The notes below the pieces were generated by a model. It worked only from the letters and a program-made list of their open reading frames with translations, was not told the DNA's origin and made no database searches. 64,000 bases of DNA from Minisyncoccota bacterium (GTDB lineage Bacteria; Patescibacteriota; Minisyncoccia; Phycocordibacterales; UBA6899). Positions 20,166-40,414 of this stretch are shown piece by piece; position 1 is the first letter of the stretch, and each line of letters begins with the position of its first letter. The stretch lies in NCBI GenBank assembly GCA_035583355.1, contig DATEZQ010000003.1, positions 193,844 to 257,843 of the forward strand, written 5' to 3'. Both the position numbers and the translations under genes were made by a program.

Positions 20166-20248
20166 ATAGGTATTATATTCCAAACTAACAATACTTCAAT
20201 TTTATCTACTTGAGTGTGGACTGAGCTGGCATGTGCTAATATGAATAC

Positions 20249-20524
20249 GTGACCAAGAACCCAAAAAATATATTTGTACCTGATGCGGTGCTGGATCTGC
20301 AGAGGCTGTCGATGAAACAGGCGACGGCGAAGTTGAAGAATTTGCGCAGCAGCTACAAGAAGGGGACGAAGGTGCGCATACTCATCGGGAAGGGTGGGTA
20401 TGGATCAGCGCCTCCGGAGATCCCGACGCTGACGAAGAAATTTCTCACCAATGAGGGCTATGCTTGGTCCTATGCCAAGCCGGTGGATGGTGGTGATGGA
20501 GCGCTTGATTGTATTATCGAGTAG
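20249..20524 (+). CDS. Smr-domain protein
   Basis: VLDLQRLSMKQATAKLKNLRSSYKKGTKVRILIGKGGYGS resembles the Smr core (LDLHG...A...L...V.IIHGKG). Confidence 0.5.
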   Translation: MTKNPKNIFVPDAVLDLQRLSMKQATAKLKNLRSSYKKGTKVRILIGKGGYGSAPPEIPTLTKKFLTNEGYAWSYAKPVDGGDGALDCIIE

Positions 20525-20539
20525 TCATAACAAACAGAA

Positions 20540-20572
20540 TACTGTTCAATAAAAAATGGGGCCTGGCCCCAT
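20540..20572. terminator. bidirectional terminator
   Basis: aaaaaatggggcc-tg-gccccattttt between convergent genes. Confidence 0.6.
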
Positions 20573-20604
20573 TTTTGTTTTTCTACTGAGCGATACTTAT
20601 TTGT

Positions 20605-21126
20605 TTATGTTCTAAGGGCGGCATTACGCACGTCGTCGTCGCTCACCTCTCCAGCAAGATACTTGCAGAGCAAATTGGTGTCGGCTGGTGTGCCCGGGAG
20701 TCCTGCGTAGGGGGTAACAAAATCCGTGCCGTCTTGCAGGGTGACCGAGATGCCATGGCCGGTTACGAATCCTCTGCGCTCGGGGAGGATCCACGTTTCC
20801 AGAATAGCGAGGGTGTGTTGTTTGCTGCCTTCATCCCAGCTAAGCTTGAGGAATGTTGGGATGCGTTCGGCATCCTGTCTTTTCCGCAACGTGGGTGGAT
20901 AGAGCGGGACACAGAGCGCGATGATTCCTTCTTTGCCCTCTTCGGGGTAGAAGGTGATGCGCTTATGGTCTTCGACCAAGCTTCTTCCGGGCTTCGAGCG
21001 GACGGAAGTTCCAAGCAGAAAGATCGCGTTGTGGGAATCTTTGACGCCAAGATGGATCGTGTTGCCCTCACGTTCCGTATAGAGCAATTCGTCGATACGC
21101 ATACCGTCTCCAATGTGCATGAACAA
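20605..21126 (-). CDS. hypothetical protein
   Basis: 173 aa ORF with no recognised motif. Confidence 0.4.
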   Translation of the reverse strand: MFMHIGDGMRIDELLYTEREGNTIHLGVKDSHNAIFLLGTSVRSKPGRSLVEDHKRITFYPEEGKEGIIALCVPLYPPTLRKRQDAERIPTFLKLSWDEGSKQHTLAILETWILPERRGFVTGHGISVTLQDGTDFVTPYAGLPGTPADTNLLCKYLAGEVSDDDVRNAALRT

Positions 21127-21233
21127 ACTGTGCTGATACTAGCGCATATAACACAATGGTCAAGAAAATGTAAGCAGTTACTATTTTGCTCATACTATTC
21201 TCTACTGCCCATTTATGCTATTATGCGGGCAAT

Positions 21234-21497
21234 ATGAAAAAGCCATACGAAGAGGAGGTTGATGAGGATGAGCAGGATGAGGACGAGGTCGTCGTCGATG
21301 CGAATGGTACGCCGCTCGCAAATGGCGATACTGTGCTCGTTATTAAGGATCTCAAGGTAAAGGGAAGTCCGGTTGGTTTTAAGAAGGGGACTAAGATCAA
21401 GAACATTCGCCTTACGGGTGGTACTGAAGGTATCAGTGGTAGCACTGATCAGATCAAGGGTTTCACGATTCGCGCAGAATACGTGAAGAAGGCATAA
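21234..21497 (+). CDS. PhnA/YjdC-like protein (C-terminal domain only, acidic N-terminus)
   Basis: VVDANGTPLANGDTVLVIKDLKVKGSPVGFKKGTKIKNIRLTGG...IKGFTIRAEYVKKA closely parallels the E. coli PhnA C-domain. The N-terminal Zn-ribbon is replaced by EEEVDEDEQDEDE. Confidence 0.65.
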   Translation: MKKPYEEEVDEDEQDEDEVVVDANGTPLANGDTVLVIKDLKVKGSPVGFKKGTKIKNIRLTGGTEGISGSTDQIKGFTIRAEYVKKA

Positions 21498-21523
21498 ATA
21501 AAAATGGGGTCTGACCCCATTTT

Positions 21524-22054
21524 TTAATACGTTGGACTTTCCTCACTAATTCCTGCACGGTGATTCGACTGGCGCGCAAGGGCATAGAGGAGGCTCGAAA
21601 GACGATTGAGGTAGGCAAGTGTTGAGGGATTGAGTGCGAGGATGCCTTCGTCGTGCACGGCAACCATGCGACGCTCCGCTCGTCGCGCGATTGTGCGCGC
21701 AACATCGAAGAGTGCTCCGAGTTCGGTTCCTCCAGAAACGAAGAAAGTTTTTACTGGCGGTAGGGTAGTTTCGATGTCGTTAATGATCTGTTCTATTTCC
21801 GTCACTGACTCCTGTGCAATATTTTTGTCTGCACCAGCAGTTTCTGCTTGCGCGATGAAGAGGTTATTCTGTACATTCCCGATGAGGGTACCAAGCTCGA
21901 GGCCAACTTGTTTGTGTACTTTGATGAGTCCTAGAAACGAGTTTATCTCATCAAGTGTGCCAAGAGCCTCTGTAATCGAGGAATTTTTCGAGAAGCGTAC
22001 TTTTGAGCCAAATGCGCTTGTTGTTCCGTCGTCACCTTTTCCTGTATAAAGCAT
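21524..22054 (-). CDS. ATP:cob(I)alamin adenosyltransferase (PduO-type)
   Basis: MLYTGKGDDGTTSAFGSKVRFSKNSSITEALGTLDEINSFLG is the N-terminal signature of the PduO/MMAB family. Start at the internal M, 22054. Confidence 0.7.
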   Translation of the reverse strand: MLYTGKGDDGTTSAFGSKVRFSKNSSITEALGTLDEINSFLGLIKVHKQVGLELGTLIGNVQNNLFIAQAETAGADKNIAQESVTEIEQIINDIETTLPPVKTFFVSGGTELGALFDVARTIARRAERRMVAVHDEGILALNPSTLAYLNRLSSLLYALARQSNHRAGISEESPTY

Positions 22055-22115
22055 AGGACAAGTGTAGCATGTTCCTTTGCATGAGAAAAAGCGCCACTTT
22101 GTGGCGCTCGCTGAT

Positions 22116-22403
22116 TCATTCGAAAGCGATGTGGGGGACAAGCGGCTTGGTGACTGGACTCGCGAGGCACTCGGTGCACAGCGCGCCCGCAGCTTCGGCC
22201 TTGCTTGTGGAGGCAGAGCGCCAGCTGACGGAGGGCCGCACTTTCAAGAGCTTTCCGCCCTCCGTGGGCAGGGTGGTGTACTTGTTCAGGTCGCAGTTGC
22301 ACTGATCGGGAATCGCGTCGGTGGTCTCGACGTTGCGTGCCTCGACGACTACGCCTACTCCGCACAGTATGCAGAGATACTTCCGCTCCTCTTTGTAGGT
22401 CAT
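22116..22403 (-). CDS. small Cys-rich (zinc-ribbon-like) protein
   Basis: CILCG...CNC...CTEC motifs. The overlapping +strand ORF (22077-22574) looks non-coding. Confidence 0.3.
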   Translation of the reverse strand: MTYKEERKYLCILCGVGVVVEARNVETTDAIPDQCNCDLNKYTTLPTEGGKLLKVRPSVSWRSASTSKAEAAGALCTECLASPVTKPLVPHIAFE

Positions 22404-22574
22404 ACGCACTCCTTCTGTATTGTTCGCCAGCGCGAACGAGGGTCTGTGCCTATGCTACGCTTTGCGGCACCATACGTCAAATGGCTCATTATTCTCAGAT
22501 TATTGCAAAGCCTCCTTACGTACGGTAGTCTACGTGTAGAGCCATTGTATTGCAGTATTTCTGAAAGGGAGCAC

Positions 22575-23387
22575 ATGCAGAAGTCACTGTTATCGCGTCA
22601 CTTTGAATTTGGAATTTGGATGTTTGATCTTGACGATACGCTCATGTGGAATTGCACGACGTACAATCAGCCCATCATCGATTTCATTCAGTACCTCACT
22701 GAGGTCTTTGGAAATCGCATTCCCTCATTGGGGACGATGGCACGCATTCAGGAAGACATCGATTGCGGACTGGGGAAGAAGCCTAACCCACGTACGGGTG
22801 AGCTCTATGGATTTGGGGCGGACCGTTTCCCTGATTCATTGATGATCACGTATCGTCAGCTCTGCACGCGTGGGTTCGGCACCTATGATGCAAATGTTGC
22901 AGAGCGGTGTCGTGAGATTGGGAAGCGTGCATTCGATGTGGAGAATTATTCCCGGCTCGGACTCGTGCCGGGAGCACAAGAGCTCTTGGACGCAATTCCC
23001 GTACAGCACCATCAGGTACTTGTCACCAAAGGTGAAAAGTGGGTGCAGGAGAACAAGATCAATGCCCTTGGTTTTCGCGATTGGTTTGATGACATCTTCA
23101 TCGTCGATCACAAGGATGGCGATACGTATCGAGACATTCTCTCGAGCCTCCGCGCAAAAGCAGGGATGCAGTCTGAGCTCTATGTGCCCGAAAACTGCAT
23201 CGCGGTAGGGAATTCGTTCTCATCTGATATCGCACCAGCACTCGCACTCGGCATGAACGCAATCTTCATTCCATGCCCCACATGGATAGCGGAGAGTGTA
23301 ATTGTCGACGAACTCTCCGAAGATGCGAGTAGCCGCTTCGTGGAACTTGAAAACATTTCCGAAATCCATTCGCTCATTTCGTACTAG
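22575..23387 (+). CDS. HAD-superfamily hydrolase
   Basis: WMFDLDDTLMWN (DxDxT motif I). GAAAGGGAG SD before the ATG at 22575. The ORF track's upstream extension is rejected. Confidence 0.65.
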   Translation: MQKSLLSRHFEFGIWMFDLDDTLMWNCTTYNQPIIDFIQYLTEVFGNRIPSLGTMARIQEDIDCGLGKKPNPRTGELYGFGADRFPDSLMITYRQLCTRGFGTYDANVAERCREIGKRAFDVENYSRLGLVPGAQELLDAIPVQHHQVLVTKGEKWVQENKINALGFRDWFDDIFIVDHKDGDTYRDILSSLRAKAGMQSELYVPENCIAVGNSFSSDIAPALALGMNAIFIPCPTWIAESVIVDELSEDASSRFVELENISEIHSLISY

Positions 23388-23430
23388 AAAAAGCGCCGCA
23401 TGTTGCGGCGCTTTGTTGTATTTCCTTGAA

Positions 23431-24087
23431 TCACTTCGGCATCTGGAGCGGATCCATGACGCCGGTTTCGTAGGCCTTCTTGGTCTGGCTGTCGAGGATG
23501 ATGCGTTCCATCTTCTCGAGTGCTTCTTTCCCGTAATAGACCTTGTCGCCGATGCGGGCCTGGAGGTTGTTCGTGGGGAAGAAGTACTTGAGGATGTATG
23601 CGCGTGCGAAGCCCTTGCGACGCCAATTGTTGTAGGTGCGAATCTGGTCGAGCAGGTAGTCCTGCTTTCCCTTGAAGGCCTCGCGACCCGCTTTTACGAA
23701 CGGGAGAATCTTGTCATAGATTCCGAATTCGTTCGTGCCGGGGTAGGCCTCCTTGATCATCGAGACCATGGCCGAACCATCGAATCCGCCACCTTCTTTA
23801 TCGTAGCGGCCAGTGACGGCGTCGGTCATGAACTTGGTCATCTTGTCGCTCTTCATGTTCGCGATGCCGGCCTGCTCGTAGAACCCGGAGACGTAGGAGC
23901 TGAGCTCGTTCTGGTTGCTGAGGAAGAGCGCGGACAGCGCGGTCTCCTGGGGGACGCTTTCGTTGTACGTGTCGTTCACACAGGAGTAGGACAGGAGGAG
24001 CGCGATGATCGCGATCGCACCATAGACCCACTTCTTGAGCTTCTTCCAGGAGAAGCTGAATCCGTTGTCGTTCGCATTCTCGTTCAT
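23431..24087 (-). CDS. membrane-anchored hypothetical protein
   Basis: N-terminal TM WVYGAIAIIALLLSY. AAGGAG SD. Start overlaps the stop of the upstream gene (operon with 24090-25565). Confidence 0.5.
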   Translation of the reverse strand: MNENANDNGFSFSWKKLKKWVYGAIAIIALLLSYSCVNDTYNESVPQETALSALFLSNQNELSSYVSGFYEQAGIANMKSDKMTKFMTDAVTGRYDKEGGGFDGSAMVSMIKEAYPGTNEFGIYDKILPFVKAGREAFKGKQDYLLDQIRTYNNWRRKGFARAYILKYFFPTNNLQARIGDKVYYGKEALEKMERIILDSQTKKAYETGVMDPLQMPK

Positions 24088-24089
24088 GA

Positions 24090-25565
24090 TCACTCCTTGA
24101 TGTGTATGCGCAGCTTGCGCAAGACTTCGTTGAAGAAAGAGTCTCCGTCGCACATAGCGAAGAGGACCCAGATGAGGCACGAGGTGATGAATGCGGCGAT
24201 GCCGATATACCATTCCTGATCTCGCCCGAGGCGAATATCATTCTTGAGATAAAGGTAACCGCCTTGTCCGTCCTTCCCAGTCATCGAGACGCGTTTGAAA
24301 CGGACGCCTTGCACTTCTTTGCCCATAAGGATACGGGGGATTATTCCCGGCTCCTTTTGCGCTTGATTCATTACGCTGATGTTCCATCGCGTTGCGACGG
24401 ACGAAAAGAATGAATCATCAGCGACATTGTTCTGACTCGACTTTGCTACGCTCATCGGTTTTCCGAGGAGTAGCTCGTGCGAAAAAGGCTTTCCCGCCAA
24501 TTGCTCATTGAGCGCGATGGTCAGGCGTTCGTTTCCGCGGGGCATGCCGGTAAAGGCACGTGCATAGTCGACATGCTCTCCACTATCTCGAGTGCCGATG
24601 AGCACAACAAGTGCATTCTTCGCGAGTGCATCTTTGCCGTGCTTTCCAGAATCGAGCATGTATGCTTGGAGTGCGAGCATGTAACGGTCGGGATTGCCAC
24701 TAATGAGTTTTTCATTAGTGATGATCACGTAGAGGTCGCACTGCACATCGCCGAGACTTGCATTGGTATACGCAAGGGATTGCGCCCACCCATTACTGAA
24801 GGGGACGTTGCCAAAGATGAAACAGCGCTGTGGATTAATGAACCCCGAAAGATTGCGTGCAAGTTTCGGCATGAGGCCTTTCGCTTCGTACTCTGCGATA
24901 TCACCAGAGTGCTTGCGCATGAGCGATTCATTGCTCGCGAGGATGTAGTTGTCGTAGGAATTACGCGTGGTGACTGGGGCAGGTTGTCCCTGCTGTAGTC
25001 GCTCGCGCAAAGCACGCCATGAGCTCGGTTCGCCGACGCCCGCACGCTGCTGGATGTAGTCCGGCACAGGCACCGACCTCCGCCAGCGATGCTGGTTGGG
25101 ATTCTCGGGAAGGCGATATGAGTCGACAGTGTAATCACCGAGTGTTGTTCCCGCGTTGTAGTTCAGTTCGAACGTTGTATACGGGCACTGATGATAGCGT
25201 GTCTCTGCACGATAGCAGGTTCGCGACTGTTTGCCGTCGCCGCACTCATAAGGGACCATAACGACATACGGATCGCAGTCGTAGGTCCAGCGGCCCGGTC
25301 CATCGCGTGAAGTCTTGATGAGCTCACGCGTCGCGCTGCTTTCCCAGCCGTTCCAGTTTTCGTTGAAGGTGAGATTGCTTGCCTGTGCAATTTTCCATCC
25401 AATCCACGCAGTGGAGGGGACGAGAATGGTACAGATTGCGATCGCACCGGTCACGAACTCTATTTGCGTGATGCGCAGATAGGGGTGGAAACGCTTGAGT
25501 AGTGCTCCGGTGATGAATCCTGCGAGGAGTGCGGCGATGATGACGTAGAGTGCAATGGTAAGCAC
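24090..25565 (-). CDS. membrane protein (2 N-terminal TM, large extracytoplasmic domain, C-terminal TM)
   Basis: 491 aa. Hydrophobic segments at both ends. Cys-rich segment YDCDPYVVMVPYECGDGKQSRTCY. Confidence 0.5.
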   Translation of the reverse strand: MLTIALYVIIAALLAGFITGALLKRFHPYLRITQIEFVTGAIAICTILVPSTAWIGWKIAQASNLTFNENWNGWESSATRELIKTSRDGPGRWTYDCDPYVVMVPYECGDGKQSRTCYRAETRYHQCPYTTFELNYNAGTTLGDYTVDSYRLPENPNQHRWRRSVPVPDYIQQRAGVGEPSSWRALRERLQQGQPAPVTTRNSYDNYILASNESLMRKHSGDIAEYEAKGLMPKLARNLSGFINPQRCFIFGNVPFSNGWAQSLAYTNASLGDVQCDLYVIITNEKLISGNPDRYMLALQAYMLDSGKHGKDALAKNALVVLIGTRDSGEHVDYARAFTGMPRGNERLTIALNEQLAGKPFSHELLLGKPMSVAKSSQNNVADDSFFSSVATRWNISVMNQAQKEPGIIPRILMGKEVQGVRFKRVSMTGKDGQGGYLYLKNDIRLGRDQEWYIGIAAFITSCLIWVLFAMCDGDSFFNEVLRKLRIHIKE

Positions 25566-25757
25566 AGAGGCTCCTTTTTTGAAAGAATTTCTATGGTAAC
25601 ATAACCATGCAAAAGTGCTTTTGTCAATAACATCAAGTCTACATACTTAATGGAAATACTAGGAAAGAAAGAATGCACGCGATGGAATGTTACAGTCTTC
25701 GTTTAGATTGCTCAATAGTGGAATTGCTTTATACTTATGTACATAACTATTAATATC

Positions 25758-26324
25758 ATGGCAAACCAAGAAAGTGGTGCAGGGATGGCACGCGAGCGCG
25801 TCGCCTCAGATATCGAATTAACGAAGGGTGGTGCAGATTACACGGTAGACGCAGGGGCAGACCGCCCTCGTCTCGAGGCAACACAGGAGCAGATCGAGGC
25901 TATGCGTGGGATGGAAAATAACGCAGAGCTCGGTGCAGCTGCTTTGCAGCAAATCGGCGAGCGTGTTGCTGCAGAAAAGGCTGAAGCTGCAGAGATCGAG
26001 AAGCAGGAAAAGGCAAAGGCCGATGCACTCATTGTTGTGCAGCGTGATAAGTTGAATCAACTTTATGATGCAGCGAACTACTCTCCAGAAGAGCGTAATG
26101 ATACTGAGATTGGACACATCAAACTTGCCGTTGATTTGAGTAAAGATAAGTGGACTCCTCGTGATCAGCGTCCACAGAATAAGCCACCTGTTGTACAAGG
26201 TTTTGGTGATAATCGCCCACAGCGAGCGCAGGCCGCAGGCTACTATGCAGGCACATTGCCTACAACTGCTCCCCCAGTCCAAAAGCCAAAGGGTTTCCTG
26301 AAAGGACTATTCGGTGGCAACTAG
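25758..26324 (+). CDS. hypothetical protein
   Basis: ORF with an Ala/Glu-rich region. Terminator hairpin aagagcaccttcggggtgctcttt at 26352-26376. Confidence 0.4.
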   Translation: MANQESGAGMARERVASDIELTKGGADYTVDAGADRPRLEATQEQIEAMRGMENNAELGAAALQQIGERVAAEKAEAAEIEKQEKAKADALIVVQRDKLNQLYDAANYSPEERNDTEIGHIKLAVDLSKDKWTPRDQRPQNKPPVVQGFGDNRPQRAQAAGYYAGTLPTTAPPVQKPKGFLKGLFGGN

Positions 26325-26428
26325 TAGATATTCCTCTATTTTGCATAACAAAGAGCACCTTCGGGGTGCTCTTTACAATATATAAAATATATCGTAGGGT
26401 TTAGCGAGAAGTGCTCCAGAGGTGCACC

Positions 26429-26968
26429 ATGCACACTGCTACGCTGAAGTTTGAGCTTGAACAGCTGCACATTATTAGTGGCATCAAAGTCTGCCGAAAG
26501 GATGACCTCGAGAACATCCATGTTTATGCAGACAGCAAGCGTATGCTTGTCCTGCCGATTACCATCGAAGATCCTCCGCTCATTATTCACCGCGGTGAGA
26601 CAGAGGACGAAATGTTGTACTATCTTTCGCGCCTATCACTCGTATCCGACGGTCGAGGTGGACTCTTCGCCTCTCGCGAGGTGGGTGACAAGGAGAAGAT
26701 GCTTCTCCTCATCGACACGCGAGATGAGGGAGCCCCGCTGCGAAACTCTGGTGAGTACACGATTCCGCGAATGCACGATGTGCGACTCCCGAGTAAGCGT
26801 ACTTCTCGCAGGCTAGGAGAGGCTAAGTTTGGCATGATCGTGTGTGTACCTAGCGAGTCATATTTCGTGCGGTCTACTAGTGGTCACGTCGCGAAACTCA
26901 CACTGGGGGCAGATGGTGTGTTCTCTTGTTCTCCTTGTGATGGGCGCAAAGTTTCATTTTCAGGCTAA
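26429..26968 (+). CDS. hypothetical protein
   Basis: ORF followed by the terminator ggcccgcaaccgcgggcctttt at 26981-27003. Confidence 0.4.
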   Translation: MHTATLKFELEQLHIISGIKVCRKDDLENIHVYADSKRMLVLPITIEDPPLIIHRGETEDEMLYYLSRLSLVSDGRGGLFASREVGDKEKMLLLIDTRDEGAPLRNSGEYTIPRMHDVRLPSKRTSRRLGEAKFGMIVCVPSESYFVRSTSGHVAKLTLGADGVFSCSPCDGRKVSFSG

Positions 26969-27009
26969 GTAATAGGTTAAAGGCCCGCAACCGCGGGCCT
27001 TTTGTTATT

Positions 27010-27561
27010 TTACCAATCTATTGCATTTGCCGTACTCATCTTCCATGCCCAGATTCCCGCTGGGTCAGTGTAGTCGACCGTTGTCGAACTTACTCCTCCG
27101 TCGCGATAAGGGTCAATAAGCTCGGGGTGACTCGTGTAGTTAAAGTTCGAGTCAACGTCTCTCATACGGTGCGCGAGGATGGCATACCCCGTTCCAAATT
27201 GATCGACACGATAGATGTAGCATGCAGTCGTGCCATTGGTGATTGGTTGCACGGGGAAGCGAGGGAGATAGTTGGGAACGAGTCCAGGAATGACCGCATT
27301 GTTCGCTAACCCGCCATACGAAGTACACTCAGTGCGCGTTTCCACTCCCGCGTATCCTCCAGTCGGGTAGAATCCATTCGCATCATTGTAGAGTTCGAGG
27401 GCAATTTTTATCTGTTCCATATCTGAAATGATGCGCGCCTCTTTTGCTTTCCTGCGTGCAGAAGATAGTGAAGCAAGCACGACGCTCGAAAGAATGCCAA
27501 TGATCGCAATGACAACAAGGAGCTCGATGAGTGTGAAGCCTTTTCGCGTGCTAATTTTCAT
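27010..27561 (-). CDS. type IV pilin-like protein
   Basis: MKISTRKG|FTLIELLVVIAIIGILSSVVLASL. Confidence 0.8.
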   Translation of the reverse strand: MKISTRKGFTLIELLVVIAIIGILSSVVLASLSSARRKAKEARIISDMEQIKIALELYNDANGFYPTGGYAGVETRTECTSYGGLANNAVIPGLVPNYLPRFPVQPITNGTTACYIYRVDQFGTGYAILAHRMRDVDSNFNYTSHPELIDPYRDGGVSSTTVDYTDPAGIWAWKMSTANAIDW

Positions 27562-27597
27562 TGGTGTATTTTATCATGAGTGAAAACTGATAAGAGC

Positions 27598-28224
27598 TTA
27601 ATTCGGCGAAGGGTCATATATAGTGTCGACATTCTCTCCGCCGTTACACCATTTCACGAGAAGCAGTGCTATCCCTGAGCCATACGAAGTATTATTGTTT
27701 TTACAGGATTGGGGATTGTTCGCATCCTCAAGTTGCGCAATAAGGTCGTAGGTATTTGGACGCGTTGCCTGGAGGTTCACCGCATTTACTCCTGTTCTTC
27801 CGACGTTGCCATATGCATAGACATAGCAATTGGCTTGCCATGGAGTGCACTTGCCACCATTGATGACATCACTCGCAGAGCCACTATTGAGTGGGTCGAC
27901 GGGGAGCCTTGGTATATAGGGAGCAAGATCAGCTTGGAGACTTGTCCATCCGGTATTATTGCTCACATCGTAACCGTGCGTGTCCCAACATGGTGGGGTA
28001 GAACATTCAGGTGCATAGGCCTGATGAATAGGTGGATAATATCCATTCGCATCATTATAGAGTTCAAGCGCAAGTGTAATTTGTGTAAAATCAGCAATGC
28101 GTCGCGCGTCACGAGATTTTTTACGTGCAGTAGTAAGACTTGCAAGCACGACGCTCGAAAGAATGCCAATGATTGCGATGACAACAAGGAGCTCAATTAA
28201 TGTAAAGCCGCGTGAAGATTTCAT
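27598..28224 (-). CDS. type IV pilin-like protein
   Basis: MKSSRG|FTLIELLVVIAIIGILSSVVLASL. The 5' ~70 nt are nearly identical at DNA level to 27010-27561. Confidence 0.8.
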   Translation of the reverse strand: MKSSRGFTLIELLVVIAIIGILSSVVLASLTTARKKSRDARRIADFTQITLALELYNDANGYYPPIHQAYAPECSTPPCWDTHGYDVSNNTGWTSLQADLAPYIPRLPVDPLNSGSASDVINGGKCTPWQANCYVYAYGNVGRTGVNAVNLQATRPNTYDLIAQLEDANNPQSCKNNNTSYGSGIALLLVKWCNGGENVDTIYDPSPN

Positions 28225-28319
28225 GAGTATATCTTACCACGATAGTATAAATAATGAAGTATAAAAGATGGTGCGCGCTTGTGCACTCATTTTCTTTGTT
28301 CTCATGTTATTATGGAGTA

Positions 28320-28925
28320 ATGGAAAGTGATTCATTTGCGCAACATCATCCACATACGCTTGGTGATTATCTCTCGCGTGGCCTCGTGCTTTTCGTATAT
28401 CGTACTGCAAAAGTAGTATTCCACTCGAGCTATGCTGAACATGCACTTGTACTTGAAGCCACATTATCTTCAATGCTGACCTCAGCAGCTACACATTTGC
28501 AGTATACTGCACTGCGTAATCTTCGTGCAGATCGTGCGCGTATCGAGGATCTCCTTGGAGAGGCAAGTAGTGAACATTTGCATCTTTTGGTACTCAAGCG
28601 TGTACAGACACTCTCTTGGCTAGGGCGTACAGCCATCTGGAAGATGCAGTTCATCTATGTACCACTTTTTCGTTTGCTGTATATCATTTCGCCTTCAGCT
28701 GCGCATCGGCTTATCGCGTATAGCGAAGAGCGACTTGCGGGTATTTACGCCGACTGGTTACTCGAATTGCTTTGTGGCGCTTCGGAGAATGCTCCTGCAC
28801 CCCTTGTTGCTATCCAATACTGGGAGCTTGGTGAAGAAGCGACACTTGTCGAACTCGTGAATGTACTCATTGCGGATACTGCGAAAAATCGCGATCGTAA
28901 CCACGCGATTGCAGATCAAAAATAA
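28320..28925 (+). CDS. hypothetical protein
   Basis: ORF followed by two terminator-like hairpins at 28922-28987. Confidence 0.4.
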   Translation: MESDSFAQHHPHTLGDYLSRGLVLFVYRTAKVVFHSSYAEHALVLEATLSSMLTSAATHLQYTALRNLRADRARIEDLLGEASSEHLHLLVLKRVQTLSWLGRTAIWKMQFIYVPLFRLLYIISPSAAHRLIAYSEERLAGIYADWLLELLCGASENAPAPLVAIQYWELGEEATLVELVNVLIADTAKNRDRNHAIADQK

Positions 28926-28988
28926 ACACCACCCGTGTTTATTTTTTTAGTGAAAAACGAGCGCCGAAGCGCTCGTGTGTTTTGTGAT

Positions 28989-30539
28989 TCACTTGATAAC
29001 TTTCTTAATTTTCAAGAACTTTCGCAGGTCTCGATATGCATCGAGGAAGCGCGTGTCATTTAGTGATTCAAGGATGTCCCTGAGTAGAATCTTATCATTT
29101 CTTTTAATGATGGTCGCATTCTTCCAGGCCACCTTGAGGAAGCGCACGATGATGTTTGCGGTGGGCCAGTCGCCGTGTTTTCCGGTAATTCGGAGATTGC
29201 GCACAATAGAGCGTGTTGTTGCGGTAATCTGCTCCCTGTACTGGGGGAGCACATTGGATAGTTCTGACCACTTGGGGCGGCCGGGCACATGGGTGTAGTC
29301 GTACAAGAGCATGATGCTCGAGAGTGCAGACTCATCCCAGATGACCTCCCCGAATGTACTTTCTGCTGCTATCGCAAGTGGAGTCTCACACACCCTTTCT
29401 TTCAGGTGCATGAGCGTCATCATTGATGCGAACTTGATCGCAAGTGGTTGGTGCTGCTCGCTACTCATGATTGCGATGCGCAAGTGCTCTGGAAGGTTCA
29501 GATAGTAATTCGCGATGGCAGTATGCATTCGGATGTTGCGCTCAACCCAGCGTCTGGAGCCTGCATCCTGCCGCTCGAATCGGTCGGTGTCGATTGCAAG
29601 CAATTTATTGCCCACGAATAAGAGGACGGATTCGGGAAGCAGTCGCGGTGCTCTCCAGCATGCTGAGTGCAGCGCTGCCGCATTGCCCGGACTCTCGATC
29701 GTTGCGAGGAGGGCGAACGGAATGAGGTCGTGTGCCGCTTCTTTCCTCTCGGAGAGCAGTTTGAATGCCGCGGCACGCAGTTCAGGGAGTAGTCGCGTAT
29801 TCGCGACGAGCCGAAGGAGTTCCGTTGATTCGATCGTCGCATCAAGCTCGCTCATCAGGTCGAAGGCTGCAATGAGGATCGCATTGGAATCAGCCTCATC
29901 ACCCCTCCATGTTCCCTTGAGCAACATGGTCACTTTGTACCAGTCGCAAGTTGAGTTGAGCGCAGCAGCGATCCGTAGCGCCCGAGACTCATCCATGTGC
30001 TCCCTGATGTACGAAATGTAGTGATCATGGATCGGTGAGCGATGTGCCGAAAGGATACAACCGATGCGTGACATGAGCTGTACCGGGTAGACCTTGTCAT
30101 CAAGGATCCGCCGCATCTCTTTTGCGAACAAGGACCAGAGCGATTCGCCGTATTCGGCAAAAGCATCACTGAGGTCCCAGTTCTCGCAGAGGAGCTTGTG
30201 GCGCAGAAAGAGTCCGGCGCGAGTACTGCCTGTCTCGACTTCCGCGAACGGAGTCTGTTCGATCAGGAGGCGGAGTATGAGTCCACCCCAGTTGTAGGTC
30301 TCACCGGACATTGCGTCGAGTAATTCATCGACGCCTGCCGCGAGGATACGGTCACCGACTTCTTGGTAGGTGCCGGTGAAGAAGGGGGGAGGGGTAGATA
30401 TGGCGACCATTGTCGCTCCCGTTGCTCGGCGGAGTATTCTCCGCAGTAAAGAAAGAACGCAGCTTTGTACATCACCCACGATGGGTGATGCGCGCTGTTT
30501 CATTATTGTTATAGCACGCAGGAGGGTTGCGTCAAACAA
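28989..30539 (-). CDS. hypothetical protein (516 aa), co-directional with the upstream CapA-family gene
   Basis: Long helical-looking ORF with no recognised motif. Confidence 0.5.
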   Translation of the reverse strand: MFDATLLRAITIMKQRASPIVGDVQSCVLSLLRRILRRATGATMVAISTPPPFFTGTYQEVGDRILAAGVDELLDAMSGETYNWGGLILRLLIEQTPFAEVETGSTRAGLFLRHKLLCENWDLSDAFAEYGESLWSLFAKEMRRILDDKVYPVQLMSRIGCILSAHRSPIHDHYISYIREHMDESRALRIAAALNSTCDWYKVTMLLKGTWRGDEADSNAILIAAFDLMSELDATIESTELLRLVANTRLLPELRAAAFKLLSERKEAAHDLIPFALLATIESPGNAAALHSACWRAPRLLPESVLLFVGNKLLAIDTDRFERQDAGSRRWVERNIRMHTAIANYYLNLPEHLRIAIMSSEQHQPLAIKFASMMTLMHLKERVCETPLAIAAESTFGEVIWDESALSSIMLLYDYTHVPGRPKWSELSNVLPQYREQITATTRSIVRNLRITGKHGDWPTANIIVRFLKVAWKNATIIKRNDKILLRDILESLNDTRFLDAYRDLRKFLKIKKVIK

Positions 30540-30564
30540 AAACCACCAGAGGTGGTTTTGGAAA

Positions 30565-31695
30565 TTATTGAACAGTAGAGAGTGAAAACGCGCATCCGCT
30601 TGGGCTGATGTTGGGCATCACTCCAAGGTATTTTGTGCACCACTGATTTGCCTCAACGGGAGAGAGGAACGTTGGTACTGCGCGTACTATCTTGTAGGGA
30701 TAGAGCATGAACTCACTACTTCCTGAGTAGAGGCTCATGCCAACGCCGACTCCTTCGTTTTGTTTTTCTCCAATTTGATCGAAGATAAAATTACCGACTG
30801 CGTAGAATATTGCATGTCCCTTATAGACCTCAATATTTTCTATGACGTGCGGATGGTTGCCGATGATGACATCTGCTCCTGCATCGATCCAGCGATGCGC
30901 AAGAATTTTTTGAGTGTCATTCGCACGAGGTGCATATTCGTCACCCCAGTGTACGGTGACAAGTACGAGGTCATGTGAACCTTTAAGTTTTGCGATGAGC
31001 GTAGGGATTTTCTCGAGTGACATGGCGCCTATTGTTGCATCGAGTCCGACAATCGCGATACGGGTTCCGCTCGCATTGCGAGACTCGACCCACGTACTGT
31101 CGATTTGTGGGTAACCCGCTGCAAGTATTTCCGCATTGAGTAAATACTTCATGCTCGAATCAATCCCGGCTTGATTGCAGTCGAGCATGTGATTGTTTGC
31201 AATGGTCACCGCATTGAATCCCTCAGACTTGAGTAGCTTTGCGGTTGAAGTAGGGAATTGAAAATTCAGCTCCTTTTGCTGGCATTCACTGCGCGGCATT
31301 GCAATGATAGGTCCCTCAAGGTTGAGCATGCGGATATCATAGTCACTCATGATGTCCATAGCGCGAAGACTGGAGAAGAGGTCGGTGCCATTGTCAACGG
31401 TTTTGCGCACTGCACGATCGAACATCGCATCACCAAAGTGAAGGAGTTTCATTGGAGCAAAATTGGTACTCTTTTTGAAAGGTGCAACGACCTCAGTGGT
31501 TGTGGCCTCGTCTGTTGTTGTGGCGACATTAATGATTGGATTTGTGGGAGTAGCAGCAAGCATGCCCCCACTGAATGTTATAGGACCCGTGCGCCCAATG
31601 ACTTTGCCAAGTGCATTTGAGAAGATAAAAACGTTTACCGTTGATATAACTACGATAAGAAGTCCTATATAGAGGTGATGTTTGCGCGCCTGCAT
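30565..31695 (-). CDS. CapA/PgsA-family metallophosphoesterase
   Basis: HFGDAMFDR...MLNLEGP...TIANNHMLDC...TVHWGDEY...IIGNHPHV. N-terminal TM anchor. Confidence 0.7.
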   Translation of the reverse strand: MQARKHHLYIGLLIVVISTVNVFIFSNALGKVIGRTGPITFSGGMLAATPTNPIINVATTTDEATTTEVVAPFKKSTNFAPMKLLHFGDAMFDRAVRKTVDNGTDLFSSLRAMDIMSDYDIRMLNLEGPIIAMPRSECQQKELNFQFPTSTAKLLKSEGFNAVTIANNHMLDCNQAGIDSSMKYLLNAEILAAGYPQIDSTWVESRNASGTRIAIVGLDATIGAMSLEKIPTLIAKLKGSHDLVLVTVHWGDEYAPRANDTQKILAHRWIDAGADVIIGNHPHVIENIEVYKGHAIFYAVGNFIFDQIGEKQNEGVGVGMSLYSGSSEFMLYPYKIVRAVPTFLSPVEANQWCTKYLGVMPNISPSGCAFSLSTVQ

Positions 31696-31774
31696 AGAGT
31701 TATAGTACCGCTAATTAACAAAGAGTAAAGCGTGTGATTGTTGCAAAAGAGATGACTTCTTGTACTATGGGTTT

Positions 31775-32854
31775 ATGATTTCGCTTGATGATTACGACTA
31801 CGATTTGCCGGAAGAACATATCGCAAAAGATCCTGCGCAGCCGAGGGAGAGTGCGCGACTTTTCGTCTACAACACTGCTACGGATGAGATTACTTTTGAT
31901 ACCTTTGCAAACATTCGTGCGCATCTACCGAAGGATACATTGCTCGTATTCAATAATACGCGCGTGATTCCTGCGCGTCTCTGGCTCAAGAAGGAGACGG
32001 GGGGAAAGATCGAGGTATTGCTTATGATGAATGAGTATCGCGAGGGAGATAGTTATATCAAGGGTGTAGTGGATCGTAAGATCGTGCCAGGTGCGAAGCT
32101 CTATTTCCAGAATGGTGCTTGGCTCGAAGTACATCACCAGGAAGAACAGTTTTTCTTCTTTAAACCAAGTTTCCCGATTCTAGAGATTTGGTCACTTTTG
32201 GATGCTGAAGGGGTAACACCAATTCCTCCGTATATCAAGGGGTCTTCACTGAATGAGAAAGCGCTCCGAGAAGAGTATCAGAGCGTGCTCGCAAAAGTCC
32301 CTGCATCTGTTGCTGCTCCGACCGCATCACTCCATTTTTCTGATGGACTCCTTGAGACTCTGAAAGAAGAAGGTGTGCAGCGCGCAGAAGTGACGCTCCA
32401 TGTGGGCGCGGGAACGTTTGCGCCAATCGGTCCGGAGAACTTCGCATCGAAGAAGCTTTTCACCGAATATTTTTCCGTCGACGGAGATAATGCTGCACTT
32501 ATCAATGCGGCAAAGTCCGATGGGGTTACGGTAATTCCTGTGGGCACTACTGCACTGCGTACTATTGAGTCTGCGGCGGTCATCGATCATATTGATGCGC
32601 AAGGGAAGACTCATTACCGTATCGCCGTAGAACATGGCAAGCCAACGGATATATTCGTATATCCTCCGTACCAGTTCAAGATAGCTGATGCACTCATCAC
32701 AAACTTCCATGTGCCGCGCTCATCACTCATGCTCCTTGTGGATGCAATGCTTGAAGCGAAGGGTGCACGTCGTCGTATTAAGGAGCTGTACGCAATTGCA
32801 ATGAAAGAGGATTTCAAATTCTTTTCTTTTGGGGATGGAATGTTGATTTTGTAG
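31775..32854 (+). CDS. queA: S-adenosylmethionine:tRNA ribosyltransferase-isomerase
   Basis: MISLDDYDYDLPEEHIAKDPAQPRESARLFVY...NNTRVIPARL is the QueA N-terminal signature. Confidence 0.88.
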   Translation: MISLDDYDYDLPEEHIAKDPAQPRESARLFVYNTATDEITFDTFANIRAHLPKDTLLVFNNTRVIPARLWLKKETGGKIEVLLMMNEYREGDSYIKGVVDRKIVPGAKLYFQNGAWLEVHHQEEQFFFFKPSFPILEIWSLLDAEGVTPIPPYIKGSSLNEKALREEYQSVLAKVPASVAAPTASLHFSDGLLETLKEEGVQRAEVTLHVGAGTFAPIGPENFASKKLFTEYFSVDGDNAALINAAKSDGVTVIPVGTTALRTIESAAVIDHIDAQGKTHYRIAVEHGKPTDIFVYPPYQFKIADALITNFHVPRSSLMLLVDAMLEAKGARRRIKELYAIAMKEDFKFFSFGDGMLIL

Positions 32855-32900
32855 AAAATAAAAAACACTCACCATCTGGTGAGTGTTTTTGCGTTTTTTG

Positions 32901-34589
32901 CTACCTGTTTATATATACAGAAATATTTGCAGAGTTATGGTTTGTGAGCACAATATCTGGACGGCCATCGTTATTAAGGTCACCAAGCACAACATCAACG
33001 GGATTTGCATTTGTCGGGAAGTCGACTTTTGTGGCAAAGGTGCCATCCCCATTATTTATGAATAACGAAATAGTATTTGAAACATAGTTTGCTGCGACGA
33101 GGTCTGGCTTGTTGTCTCCATTAATATCTTTCGCTGAAACCATATATGTATTCACCCCTGTAGGATAATCAACTTTTGAGGGGAAGGTACCATCACCTGC
33201 ATTGGCGAAGATAGAGATAGAGTTAGAACCATAATTTCCTATCGCGAGGTCAATCTTTCCGTCACTATTGAAGTCATCGGTTGCAACCGATATCGGAGTA
33301 TTACCTGCTGAGAATGTTACTTTTGGTGCAAAGGTGCCATTGCCATTATTCATCAAGACTGATACATTGTTCGTCGCGATAAAACCTACAAGTACAAGAT
33401 CTGGCTTATTGTCACCATTGAAATCCTGGATAGCGACGCCCGCAGGGTTCCCTCCTGCGGGATAGGTGACTCTTGCTGCAAAAGTGCCGTTGCCGTTATT
33501 CATAAGAATGGCTACGTTTCCACTGCAGTAATTCGCTACCGCGATGTCGAGAAAACCATCACTATTAAGGTCGCCACTTGCGAGATAGCGTGAATTGCAG
33601 GTTGCGGTCTCTGTTTGGTAGATTACTCGTGTATTAAATGTACCATCTCCTTTATTTGTAAGAATGGAAATTGTATGATCTCCATAATCTGCGGTGATAA
33701 GATCGAGCTTGCTATCATTGTTTACATCGAGAAGGATTATCGAGTCGGGCTGAGTGCCTGATACATAATTTACCTTTGCGTTAAAAGTGCCGTCTCCTTT
33801 ATTGAGCAGCACCGAAGCATTATTTGATGCGTAGTTCGCTACTGCGAGGTCTTGTGCTCCATCACCATTCAAGTCACCGATGACCACTGCGCGTGGTTGC
33901 GTATTTACTCCATAATCTACTTTTGCATAGGGGTTAAATGCGTATGCTATTGGTCCACCACCGCTACCTCCTCCGCCTGTAGTTGAAGTTGCTCCGGTTG
34001 CTGCGGCAAATGATGCGAAAGCTCCGACCGTAAGACCTCCAGTGCTGTTGATGTCCATTGTTGCGGTTGGTGCCTCAATGCTCGAAGCTCCTAGGACATG
34101 TAGTTGATTATTTTGCGGCGCAATGTAGGTGTAGTAATTATTTTTATTATTTATGGGGTCAATGGGGAGGGTTTTGATGAATGCATCATTTGCTGTACCC
34201 GAGAGGTTGATGGGGAGCCAACCTGTCCCGTCTGTGTTTTTGAGTGTCGTGGCGAGCACGCAGTTGTATGACCACCCCGGCTGTAATGATGGGAGTCCTA
34301 GATTGTCACAGGTTGATGATGTGTCAGGGAGTGATGTATAGACAGTATTTGCTGCTCCATAGCTTGGATTTGAGGCAAAAGTTTCATATATACTGATCGC
34401 TTTGTGCATCATGAAAAGATCCGCAAGTCTGCGTGCGTCACGACTTTTTGCTTTTGCCGTTGTAAGTGCAGCAAAAACAATTGATGAAAGCAACGCAATA
34501 ATCGCGATGACTACGAGAAGTTCGATGAGCGTAAAACCTCGCACCCGAGAATCTCGTGATTGAGGATGAGGGGAAGTCATTGTTGTCAT
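32901..34589 (-). CDS. pilin-like protein fused to FG-GAP/VCBS beta-propeller repeats (putative pilus adhesin)
   Basis: N-terminal RVRG|FTLIELLVVIAIIALLSSIVFAAL. About 7 C-terminal repeats of D(L/F)NGDG.(D/P)(L/I)..(A/G)NY.SN..S...N.GDGTF. Start uncertain (34580-34646). Confidence 0.7.
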   Translation of the reverse strand: MTTMTSPHPQSRDSRVRGFTLIELLVVIAIIALLSSIVFAALTTAKAKSRDARRLADLFMMHKAISIYETFASNPSYGAANTVYTSLPDTSSTCDNLGLPSLQPGWSYNCVLATTLKNTDGTGWLPINLSGTANDAFIKTLPIDPINNKNNYYTYIAPQNNQLHVLGASSIEAPTATMDINSTGGLTVGAFASFAAATGATSTTGGGGSGGGPIAYAFNPYAKVDYGVNTQPRAVVIGDLNGDGAQDLAVANYASNNASVLLNKGDGTFNAKVNYVSGTQPDSIILLDVNNDSKLDLITADYGDHTISILTNKGDGTFNTRVIYQTETATCNSRYLASGDLNSDGFLDIAVANYCSGNVAILMNNGNGTFAARVTYPAGGNPAGVAIQDFNGDNKPDLVLVGFIATNNVSVLMNNGNGTFAPKVTFSAGNTPISVATDDFNSDGKIDLAIGNYGSNSISIFANAGDGTFPSKVDYPTGVNTYMVSAKDINGDNKPDLVAANYVSNTISLFINNGDGTFATKVDFPTNANPVDVVLGDLNNDGRPDIVLTNHNSANISVYINR

Positions 34590-34790
34590 TATATTAGTAC
34601 TTGAGAATTGTGTGGAGCGCATACTATATATACTATAGTATAACATATGAGATTCTTTCAGCTGATCGTGGCTTCTGCTTCTTTACTTTGAATGCGTTCA
34701 GTGTTACTATCCGCGCAGAATCTGTTCAAAAATCTTGATGGCATCTGTCCATCGCTTGATCCGCGAGAGCGCGCGGGGGAGGTTAGTGCA

Positions 34791-35378
34791 ATGCGTATTG
34801 CCGCGACCCTTGAGGTTGACGAAGGTGCACGAATCGTAAGCACGATCGAGCGCGCCATTTCTTCTGCGAAGTTGTCTCCTGATTACTCTGCGAGTTTCAC
34901 GATGAGTGGAGTGACCATCACCGTTCGCGACGACTCAAGTCCGCGTCTCATCTTCGATGAATTCCTTCGTGCGCTCAACGGGCGCCTCGAGGGCGAAGTT
35001 GGTCCGTATCCCAAGGATATTCCTATCGAGGATCTCTCTGTCCCGCTTTTGCGTGCCGACATTGAAGCACTCCTCGCGGAGGCGCCTCCCATAGAGGTGG
35101 TCGATGAGGAACGCTGGCTTTTGATGAAGGAGACGAATGTCGACAATTGCGGCTATGGCCAAAGCATGGTTGCGTACGCTGAGCGTTGGGCTCGGTTGAT
35201 GCAGCTGCGCCTTGCCAGCGGTCGCAAGATTGATGATGTCGCAGGTCGCGCTTCATTCGAAGTGGACTTCGATGGTATTCGTCCACTTGTGGTGCGTCGT
35301 GCAGTCATCGAACTTTCATTGCACTGGAAATATGGTCGTGAACTGCTTGCTGAGAGCTGGCACGCACGCGGGAAATAG
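34791..35378 (+). CDS. hypothetical protein
   Basis: GGAGG before the ATG at 34791. Divergent from the FG-GAP pilin gene. Confidence 0.4.
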   Translation: MRIAATLEVDEGARIVSTIERAISSAKLSPDYSASFTMSGVTITVRDDSSPRLIFDEFLRALNGRLEGEVGPYPKDIPIEDLSVPLLRADIEALLAEAPPIEVVDEERWLLMKETNVDNCGYGQSMVAYAERWARLMQLRLASGRKIDDVAGRASFEVDFDGIRPLVVRRAVIELSLHWKYGRELLAESWHARGK

Positions 35379-35567
35379 TACACTGCTGAGCCTCGAACGA
35401 ATATGTTCGGGGCTTTTGTTTTTCCTATATGGCTTAAAATATGAGTAAAATATTGTGTCCTTTAGCCAAGAAGGCAATTTTGCTAATAGAATCTATAGGA
35501 CATTTGGTCCAATACTATACTTTGCGGAAAAAATTCAATAAATAGTGCTAAATAAGGCTAAAATCGA

Positions 35568-35596
35568 TTGACAAAAGCAAAAAATGGGAGTAGTAT
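35568..35596 (+). promoter_or_regulatory. sigma70-like promoter with ~290 nt leader upstream of rpsS
   Basis: TTGACA, 17 nt spacer, TAGTAT. A long untranslated leader runs to 35884. Confidence 0.4.
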
Positions 35597-35884
35597 CGTA
35601 TCCAAGCAAATTGAATAAGGAAATTTCTTACGCCGTGGGAGGATCAGGGGCGTTAGATTTCTATGTCAATACGCGGTCTTAGGTCTCGGTAAAGGTTCAG
35701 GTTTTGGGTGCACGCATCCTTCCTACTCGTCCCTGTCCGTCCTCAGGCATTTATAAGTATCGTTAAACTCCGGGTCTTCTTAGAGAAGCTATACGACATC
35801 CTCCCTCGTGTCGGTGATCCTTCGTAAGATTCGGCAGGAACATACAGGTGTTCGATTTCGATCGAACATCTTCATTCAACAAAT

Positions 35885-36229
35885 ATGTCGCGTTCACTCA
35901 AAAAGGGACCATACGTCTACGACCGCCTCCTCAAGAAGATTGAGGGTAAGCGTCCAGAGGATGTAGGTACCATCAAGACATGGGCACGTGCGTCGGTCAT
36001 CTCTCCAGAGATGCTCAACTTCACGTTCGGTGTCCATAACGGAAAGGACTTCATTGAAGTCAAGGTTACTGAGGATATGGTGGGCCACCGTTTCGGTGAG
36101 TTCTCACAGACTCGTAAGTTTACTCGCCACGGAGGTAAGATGCAGAAGGAACTTGAGCAGAAGCAGAAGCTTGCTGAGGTTACTGCTGCAAAGGCAGCAA
36201 AGGCTTCCGGTGATGCTAAGAAGAAGTAA
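35885..36229 (+). CDS. rpsS: 30S ribosomal protein S19
   Basis: [20 protein letters not shown]... plus a Lys/Ala-rich C-terminal extension. Confidence 0.93.
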
Positions 36230-39871: not shown

Positions 39872-40414
39872 ATGCAAATGAAAGTATCATCTCGCAAAGG
39901 TTTCACGTTGATCGAATTGCTCGTGGTTATCGCAATCATTGCACTCCTCTCAAGTGTGGTGCTTGCTGCACTTTCTTCCGCACGTGCAAAGGCGCGTGAC
40001 GCACGACGCATATCGGATATAAGGCAGATCCAGCGCGCGGTTGATTTGTATGCTGATGATCACGGGGGACTTTTTCCGAATTCAGTGAACTTCGTTACGT
40101 TCAGTGATCCTGCATCTACGACCTCATGGGGCGCTAAGCGTCTTACGAGTTCTGGGCTTGCAACGTGGGATAGCGATTTTCTTCCTTTGCTTGCACCATA
40201 TATGACGAGGCTACCGAGGGACCCAATCAACGTTGCTCCATATTCTTATGACTACATTCCGGAGGGATACGGACAGTGTCCATCCTCTGCTCCGGTCGGC
40301 AGTACAACGCGATACTCCATTATTTTCTCATCTGAGGTCAGTGTGTTCAATCTTCCGTTACTGCAGGCGCCGAATTACTCTGGAGCAGCAGGGCGATATT
40401 GTATTACACCATAA
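39872..40414 (+). CDS. type IV pilin-like protein inserted between rplE and rpsN
   Basis: M(QM)KVSSRKG|FTLIELLVVIAIIALLSSVVLAAL. TATACT -10 element immediately upstream. Confidence 0.75.
   Translation: MQMKVSSRKGFTLIELLVVIAIIALLSSVVLAALSSARAKARDARRISDIRQIQRAVDLYADDHGGLFPNSVNFVTFSDPASTTSWGAKRLTSSGLATWDSDFLPLLAPYMTRLPRDPINVAPYSYDYIPEGYGQCPSSAPVGSTTRYSIIFSSEVSVFNLPLLQAPNYSGAAGRYCITP

Follow-up and report, generated by a model that had tools for sequence, protein, structure and literature searches.

This 64-kb stretch of DNA (contig DATEZQ010000003.1; hereafter the window) comes from an uncultivated ultrasmall bacterium, Candidatus Paceibacterota, and carries on its minus strand a gene in which a prepilin N-terminus and pilin head are joined to an FG-GAP beta-propeller (Table 1). 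By its sequence features the product is a type IV pilin, and it is probably a minor (low-abundance) modular pilin which shows a Ca2+-stabilised binding propeller on a flexible tether. The support comprises sequence motifs and the predicted fold, a fusion that is conserved and whose modules are under purifying selection, reuse of the head with other cargo and one relative linked to pilus machinery.

A class III pilin signal and a hydrophobic stem were claimed in a preliminary description of this DNA, and the string quoted there, RVRG/FTLIELLVVIAIIALLSSIVFAALTTAKAKSRDARRLADL (the slash marks the cleavage point), was found exactly in the translation. The prepilin signal RVRG/FTLIE is canonical, with Gly at -1, Phe at +1 and Glu at +5, and the N-terminus scored above the cutoffs of both Pfam N_methyl (PF07963; 34.5 bits, cutoff 21.2) and TIGR02532 (30.4 bits, cutoff 16.3). 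The pilin module was aligned with relatives (81 sequences); F1, T2, L3, E5, L6, L7 and V9 never vary in this alignment, and Gly(-1) is conserved at 90% or more. Thus the G(-1)/E(+5) processing site, which the description had named as a check, is present here and invariant or nearly so in the relatives. An alpha1 helix at residues 21-71 and four strands were predicted by AlphaFold2 (predicted local distance difference test, pLDDT, 88-98).

The head contains four beta strands, a conserved Cys94/Cys110 pair and an LPxDPxNN..YY.Y motif. Both cysteines are kept in all orthologues, which suggests a Cys94-Cys110 disulfide. When the profile of the 81-sequence alignment was compared with solved pilins, it matched Geopilin (8.7e-18), PilA 6xxd (1.5e-14), PilE1 8pfb of S. 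sanguinis (1.7e-11) and Neisseria/Pseudomonas pilins (approximately 1e-7), as well as GspG 5wda (1e-11). Profile positions 40-150 also matched GspG/EpsG crystal constructs which lack alpha1N (3gn9, 3fu1, 4lw9 and 2kep; E 2.5e-4 to 1e-3), which suggests that the head itself, beyond the helix, is GspG-like. A single-sequence phmmer search of the PDB matched the pilin N-terminus only, and the relatives emerged with profiles. The head is 30-52% identical to ordinary pilins of 108-320 amino acids (aa) from Liptonbacteria, Kaiserbacteria, Ryanbacteria and other Patescibacteria.

The C-terminal part of the protein is matched by Pfam FG-GAP_3 in seven stretches (222.6 bits, E 6e-67) and by Pfam FG-GAP (96 bits). 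Repeat units were delimited by anchoring on D-x-N-x-D-x-x-x-D with a regular expression run on the translation, which gave seven units of 49-52 aa (43 aa for the last) with a mean pairwise identity of 41%. All seven blades have D1, N3, D5 and D9 of the integrin-type Ca2+ hairpin, and the regularity of the seven repeats is far beyond chance. Orthologues keep the DxNxDxxxD loops, bar one D-to-E change, and up to seven Ca2+ ions would probably bind there and stiffen the blades. The FG-GAP propeller of about seven D.NGDG-type repeats that had been described is therefore borne out by the seven FG-GAP_3 stretches and by a model of seven four-stranded blades, although the repeat region measures 341 aa (residues 222-562) and not the approximately 370 aa given. 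The propeller is acidic, with a net charge of -16, and Asn-rich (47/341 residues).

Among solved structures, the propeller profile matched the seven-bladed lectins PVL, PAL and AAL2, of fungal origin, at 1e-17 to 1e-13 (PVL 1.3e-17, AAL2 1.4e-13) and integrins alpha-V (approximately 5e-11), alpha-IIb, alpha-5 and alpha-6, with further matches to the secreted esterase 8w20, CRTAC1 and Tc-toxin B subunits. Foldseek of the model likewise returned PVL, AAL2, CRTAC1 and integrin alpha-V and added teichuronic-acid-bound UmbA4 from Streptomyces (21% identity) and Bap1 from V. cholerae; identity was 19-21% for the matches of PVL/AAL2/UmbA4 type. UmbA4 is a lectin through which umbrella toxins are targeted to cell-wall glycopolymers in particular bacteria (PMC13274773). 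An XAC2610-related NCBIfam match (40.4 bits) was rejected as a family assignment, as it covers one 24-residue stretch of blade 1 that includes the calcium-loop motif, with no stretch passing alone, and it was read as a generic FG-GAP/calcium-loop motif.

Structure prediction had been proposed as a check on the description, and AlphaFold2 gives a pilin alpha1 helix and head followed by the propeller. The full-length model, for which 78 sequences were used as input (orthologues, homologues of the propeller, and pilins from both the candidate phyla radiation (CPR) and the window itself), has a mean pLDDT of 89.1. It consists of a single 51-residue helix (residues 21-71), a head of four strands (residues 82-168, pLDDT approximately 80-94), a region modelled at low confidence (residues 179-213) and a propeller of 28 strands, seven times four (residues 224-559, pLDDT approximately 97). 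Topology was unchanged when the pilin module was modelled alone from the 81-sequence alignment (residues 19-178, pLDDT 92.7). The junction, residues 179-221, is 75-81% identical among orthologues, and a segment resembling residues 179-200, D..GG...(Y)E.G.NL, is found at the same position in relatives with other cargo. From this comparison, residues 179-200 (DINSTGGLTVGAFASFAAATGA) are probably the end of the pilin head, in which case the truly flexible tether would be residues 201-221.

The sole long minus-strand open reading frame (ORF) here, 32901..34646, encodes 581 aa from its first ATG. The NCBI entry HXK37907.1 begins at 34622, has 573 aa and is identical to the best match of our orthologue search (P0001); the end coordinate in the preliminary description, 34589, is itself an in-frame ATG and is the start used here, with 562 aa. 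Because all candidate starts are upstream of the cleavage site, the mature protein is 544 aa from Phe19 whichever is chosen. The leader is poorly conserved (22-36% identity among orthologues), and since the start codon is uncertain, so is the leader's length. HXK37907.1 is publicly annotated as an FG-GAP-like repeat-containing protein, with the pilin half not named, and such proteins are easily overlooked in surveys because the annotation misses that half.

Table 1. Features of the modular prepilin gene and its flanking regions (window positions; residues numbered from the start at 34589)
Feature	Position	Strand	Residues and details	Basis
Modular prepilin gene	32901..34589	(-)	562 aa + TAG stop; residue numbering used throughout
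Other in-frame ATGs	34646, 34622 (NCBI call), 34580	(-)		ORF list
Leader peptide MTTMTSPHPQSRDSRVRG	34536..34589	(-)	residues 1-18, ends Gly(-1)	sequence
Mature N-terminus F(+1)TLIE(+5) and hydrophobic alpha1N stem	34455..34535	(-)	residues 19-45 (27 residues)	N_methyl, TIGR02532
Whole alpha1 helix	34377..34535	(-)	residues 19-71	AlphaFold2, pLDDT ~90-98; DSSP helix 21-71
Globular head	34056..34376	(-)	residues 72-178	AlphaFold2 models, profile matches, orthologue alignment
Segment DINSTGGLTVGAFASFAAATGA	33990..34055	(-)	residues 179-200	pLDDT <50, yet conserved
Gly/Ser/Thr-rich tether TSTTGGGGSGGGPIAYAFNPY	33927..33989	(-)	residues 201-221	composition, pLDDT 33-47
Seven-bladed FG-GAP (integrin-alpha-like) beta-propeller	32904..33926	(-)	residues 222-562	Pfam, model, Foldseek, profiles
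Blade 1	33780-33926	(-)	from residue 222	calcium-loop motif DLNGDGAQD 33849-33875, residue 239
Blade 2	33624-33779	(-)	from residue 271	calcium-loop motif 33702-33728, residue 288
Blade 3	33477-33623	(-)	from residue 323	calcium-loop motif 33546-33572, residue 340
Blade 4	33327-33476	(-)	from residue 372	calcium-loop motif 33399-33425, residue 389
Blade 5	33180-33326	(-)	from residue 422	calcium-loop motif 33249-33275, residue 439
Blade 6	33033-33179	(-)	from residue 471	calcium-loop motif 33102-33128, residue 488
Blade 7	32904-33032	(-)	from residue 520	calcium-loop motif 32955-32981, residue 537
Bidirectional intrinsic-terminator-like hairpin	32861..32890	.	13-bp stem; between convergent queA and pilin genes	terminator scan
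AT-rich upstream region	34588..34661	(-)	two sigma-70-like matches, 34616-34588 and 34661-34632	promoter scan; consensus matches, no commoner than in shuffled sequence

Orthologues were sought in a set of 5.8 billion proteins, which gave 2,359 matches. Among the best 120 of these, PF07963 was found only in P0001 (identical), P0002 (72% identity) and P0003 (68%), the rest matching the propeller only; a fourth orthologue is represented by a fragment, P0121 (77%). The fusion is thus kept in three orthologues (P0002, P0003 and P0121; 67-77% identity), with conserved synteny. P0003 is encoded on a 333-kb contig from a groundwater metagenome (L002) with the same neighbours: S19-L22-S3 and following genes, a Tad4-like gene, the pilin, queA and PGA_cap. 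Compared with this orthologue, the proportion of nonsynonymous differences (pN) is 0.18-0.20 in the head, junction and propeller, at a proportion of synonymous differences (pS) of 0.82, and 0.04 in alpha1N (pS 0.71). As synonymous sites are saturated (pS 0.82), pN and pS are reported in place of dN/dS; pN/pS is approximately 0.22-0.24 across modules, and the substitution pattern indicates that all modules are under purifying selection.

No full-length orthologue was found in GTDB representative genomes, which have propeller-only relatives. The closest of these propellers are 47-53% identical over residues 222-561 and belong to Peribacteria and Saccharibacteria, in ORFs of approximately 800 to 4,900 aa. 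None of these ORFs has a pilin N-terminus, and several are truncated where the contig ends. An independent N_methyl and FG-GAP fusion of 1,184 aa was found on another contig (L010), with a propeller 50% identical to that described here.

A metagenome scan with an alignment of the head and linker gave no further FG-GAP orthologue, and returned the same head with other cargo. The head subfamily, with the motifs SLPDTSSTC, GWSY.C, KNTDGTGW and LP.DP.N, is fused elsewhere to Laminin_G_3 (four proteins), an FGE-sulfatase-like module (one) and DUF4215 (one, P0124); the metagenomic relatives with other cargo are L085, L086, L087, L089 and L090, together with P0124. Because the same head subfamily is fused to differing modules, the head is a reusable carrier. 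One Laminin_G_3 version (L087) is located approximately 1.3 kb from pilM, pilN, pilO, pilB (T2SSE + MshEN), pilT and pilC, and this adjacency ties the head subfamily to a retractile machine of the type IVa pilus (T4aP) type. The same gene is also near one for a VirD4/TraG-like coupling protein.

If the protein is a minor modular pilin, prepilin peptidase would cut after Gly18, and the hydrophobic alpha1 helix and GspG-like head would allow the type IV pilus assembly machinery to take it up as a rare (minor) subunit, most probably at or near the pilus tip. The bulky cargo makes such a placement plausible, an argument already made for PilB (PMC8179133). The flexible tether of approximately 20 residues would then hold out the 37-kDa seven-bladed integrin-like propeller, which may bind a molecule, probably a glycan or glycopolymer, on the surface of a partner cell or substrate, and pilus retraction could then draw the possibly episymbiotic cell onto its target. 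More tentatively, and with the balance tipped against it, the propeller could be a Ca2+-dependent host-recognition lectin of a Paceibacterota pilus, and the head a plug-in carrier on which lineages swap modules (FG-GAP, Laminin_G_3, FGE-sulfatase-like and DUF4215). If this is true, host range would be set as in phages that swap receptor-binding proteins, and the recombinant propeller would be usable as a probe for the host of an uncultivated lineage.

Several observations weigh against an adhesive minor pilin. The gene is monocistronic and is located between queA and a Tad4-like gene, outside any minor-pilin operon. Among the window's plausible ORFs of at least 150 aa there was no Pfam match to a prepilin peptidase, a PilB/T ATPase or a PilC platform protein, and no GspE-type Walker A motif was found in any of the six frames of the window; the pilus machinery would have to be encoded elsewhere in the genome. 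A Foldseek search of the PDB with the pilin-only model gave nothing significant, probably because the method copes poorly with a long helix plus a small sheet, and the head assignment consequently rests on sequence profiles and topology. As the tether is long and flexible, it does not allow a position at the tip to be told from one in the shaft. Furthermore, no specific ligand is indicated. The N-acetylglucosamine (GlcNAc) pocket of AAL2 and PVL is formed by Asn/Asp, Trp and His, repeated per blade (PMC4483166), and a PVL-type site was rejected as these pocket residues are missing from the propeller, which has no Trp and only two His; the fold and calcium loops are therefore common to both, and the sugar site is not.

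The product could instead be a surface-anchored binding protein and not a filament subunit, with the class III signal serving PilD-dependent processing and membrane anchoring, or it could form a short pseudopilus-like stub. Sugar-binding proteins with class III signals are displayed at the cell surface in this way in the archaeal bindosome. Although the isolation of the gene from any pilus operon, the apparent likeness of the head to the pseudopilin GspG, the bulky 341-aa cargo and the abundance of pilin-like proteins in CPR genomes (seven in this window) would all suit such an anchor, we consider it unlikely, as conservation of the alpha1 helix and head matches that seen in ordinary CPR pilins, a relative from the head subfamily lies beside a retractile T4aP-type cluster that includes PilT, and the experimental precedents, PilB and PilX2, are filament-associated (PMC8179133, PMC11623550). 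Less probable still is a filament subunit with a non-adhesive propeller, whether a Ca2+-sensing or regulatory module tuning pilus extension and retraction or an enzyme-associated/degradative module that the pilus delivers. Regulation of pilus extension and retraction has been proposed for the calcium site of PilY1, and seven intact calcium-loop motifs are present here; the loops of integrins and PVL-type lectins, however, are structural. No catalytic domain or catalytic-family match was found in Pfam and NCBIfam scans of the protein, which speaks against a degradative role even though a secreted esterase (8w20) and Tc-toxin subunits contain FG-GAP propellers as well and modular pilins with peptidase modules are listed by Raynaud et al. 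(PMC8179133). The structural role of the loops is documented for PVL-type lectins (PMC4483166), and among solved structures the propeller is closest in sequence to lectins and adhesion receptors.

It is very improbable that the fusion is an assembly or annotation artefact, or that the gene is decaying. The sequence does come from a metagenome-assembled genome and the start codon is ambiguous, but the same fusion, with conserved neighbours, is present in independent assemblies from other samples (P0002, P0003 and P0121), the ORF is uninterrupted and the AlphaFold2 model is confident. As all modules are under purifying selection and the orthologous fusion is found on an independent contig, the fusion is not an assembly artefact, and this explanation is effectively refuted by the orthologue contigs, the alignment and the selection data.

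Six other small pilin genes are scattered through the window, making seven in all, and from this number it is clear that the organism invests in type IV filaments. The modular pilin resembles the other six mainly in alpha1 (BLAST, 38-67% identity over 52-134 residues). One of the seven, a 180-aa pilin gene at 39872-40414 (+), is within the ribosomal-protein operon between L5 and S8, and the orthologous groundwater contig has a 178-aa N_methyl gene next to S8. A full-length c-di-GMP-II riboswitch (RF01786) was found at 7029-7112 (-), scoring 64.6 bits (gathering score 53.5; E 3.8e-12). Directly downstream of it on the same strand are an ORF at approximately 6449-6949 (-), which encodes a small secreted-looking protein without a Pfam match, and then a pilin gene at 5817-6380 (-). 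This arrangement suggests control of a pilin operon by cyclic di-GMP in a Paceibacterota genome, and in Clostridioides difficile pilA1 is known to be under such control. The scanned ORFs included no GGDEF or EAL protein.

Upstream of the modular pilin gene, where no Rfam family was found, the gap to the divergent Tad4-like gene is approximately 45-110 bp, depending on the start codon. The C-terminal part of this neighbour (34692-35378 (+), 228 aa) matches PF25186, the family of the Thoeris inhibitor Tad4, at 56 bits (cutoff 25), and the gene is beside the pilin in the orthologous groundwater contig too. As a conserved partner it was rejected, since it showed no similarity to the 228-aa neighbour of the L010 fusion. 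A PGA_cap (CapA-like) gene is located within approximately 2 kb of the N_methyl and FG-GAP gene in the window (30565-31695 (-)) and in both L002 (12958-14031) and L010 (5652-6656); the PGA_cap proteins of the lineage described here and of L010 are 34% identical, and the proximity in both fusions may be coincidence.

These genes are part of approximately 17 kb of unrelated genes (18940-35885) which splits the normally adjacent rplB (L2, 18095-18940) and rpsS (S19, 35885-36229). This insert holds three pilins, an alternative oxidase, PGA_cap and queA, as well as large ORFs without a Pfam match, including 22077-23387, 24090-25565 and 28989-30539. The alternative oxidase (28254-28925 (+); PF01786, 122 bits) is kept in the related contig L002. 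Elsewhere in the window, two adjacent CsgG/FlgO-like proteins of 351 and 329 aa are encoded at 9966-12087 (-), and a 687-aa protein with IPT/TIG domains and a C-terminal PG_binding_1 (50819-52882 (+)) is possibly a surface or host-contact protein. The 23S and 5S rRNA genes are at 55161-58376 (+), and neither a 16S rRNA nor a tRNA was found anywhere in the window, which suggests an unlinked rRNA operon.

The protein has an N-terminal IPR012902 motif, a linker and a C-terminal domain that is not pilus-specific, as modular pilins do. The InterPro entry for the FG-GAP repeat is IPR013517. In their InterPro survey, Raynaud et al. (2021) reported 1,219 modular pilins in 264 architectures, with many of the representative proteins from CPR phyla; 15/1219 contain IPR013517, with IPR012902-IPR013517 architectures (Dataset S1), and some PilY1 proteins carry FG-GAP fusions too (Dataset S2; PMC8179133). 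Modular pilins, including N_methyl with FG-GAP, have therefore been catalogued since 2021, so that the design is already known and concepts are unchanged. Neither experimental work on an FG-GAP pilin nor a paper on one in Patescibacteria was found in the searched literature. Patescibacteria are mostly uncultivated, the few cultivated Saccharibacteria use pili and a propeller-bearing minor pilin in host binding, and for Paceibacterota there are a few enrichment-culture observations of attachment, to methanogenic archaea: Paceibacteria seen attached to Methanospirillum in enrichments have pilin genes and pilBCDMT clusters (PMC9763046). The protein is a clean candidate, with a well-folded predicted structure, for a PilX2-like design in Paceibacterota. 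It could be expressed for a ligand or host search, and it is a good candidate for experiments.

The preliminary description had put forward a candidate pilus-tip or minor-pilin adhesin, and this agrees with the precedents of PilB and PilC (PMC8179133) and PilX2 (PMC11623550), although the design is less novel than was implied. The S. sanguinis modular pilins PilB (vWA module) and PilC (lectin module) also combine an N-terminal IPR012902/N_methyl pilin, a linker and a bulky generic binding domain (PMC8179133, PMC9934059), and the predicted role, a low-abundance adhesive subunit, is alike. The cargo differs, being a seven-bladed FG-GAP propeller here and a vWA or ConA-like lectin domain there, and the tether here is longer and predicted to be disordered. 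Another precedent is PilX2 of the saccharibacterium Nanosynbacter lyticus TM7x, a minor pilin with a C-terminal seven-bladed RCC1 propeller, which is the proposed adhesin of the thin pilus; its deletion reduces host binding from approximately 10.6% to 4.6% of host cells, and pili still assemble (PMC11623550). The protein described here, probably a minor pilin too, likewise comes from a Patescibacterium and has a predicted C-terminal seven-bladed propeller. However, the propeller described here is of FG-GAP type and matched no RCC1 family, it follows a canonical signal, whereas PilX2 has no predicted PilD signal, and its gene stands alone, in contrast to the pilus locus of PilX2.

A comparison with PilY1-like minor pilins, which had also been suggested, did not hold. 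The T4aP tip adhesins PilY1/PilC (IPR008707/PF05567) share with the proposed reading the theme of an adhesive beta-propeller, in their case with a functional Ca2+ site at the pilus tip, but their propeller is of another family and PilY1 is not a pilin and docks on minor pilins, whereas the present protein has a pilin N-terminus. Membership was rejected as there was no PF05567 match and no PilY1 among the top 50 Foldseek matches. With the giant FG-GAP surface proteins of Peribacteria and Saccharibacteria, the propeller module alone is common, and an envelope protein with a lectin-like VCBS domain is essential in S. epibionticum. The PVL/AAL2 lectins and UmbA4 share FG-GAP/integrin-like blades with Ca2+ loops, but the blades of PVL and AAL2 carry the Asn/Asp-Trp-His GlcNAc pocket that those described here do not, UmbA4 has six blades rather than seven, and none of the three is attached to a pilin.

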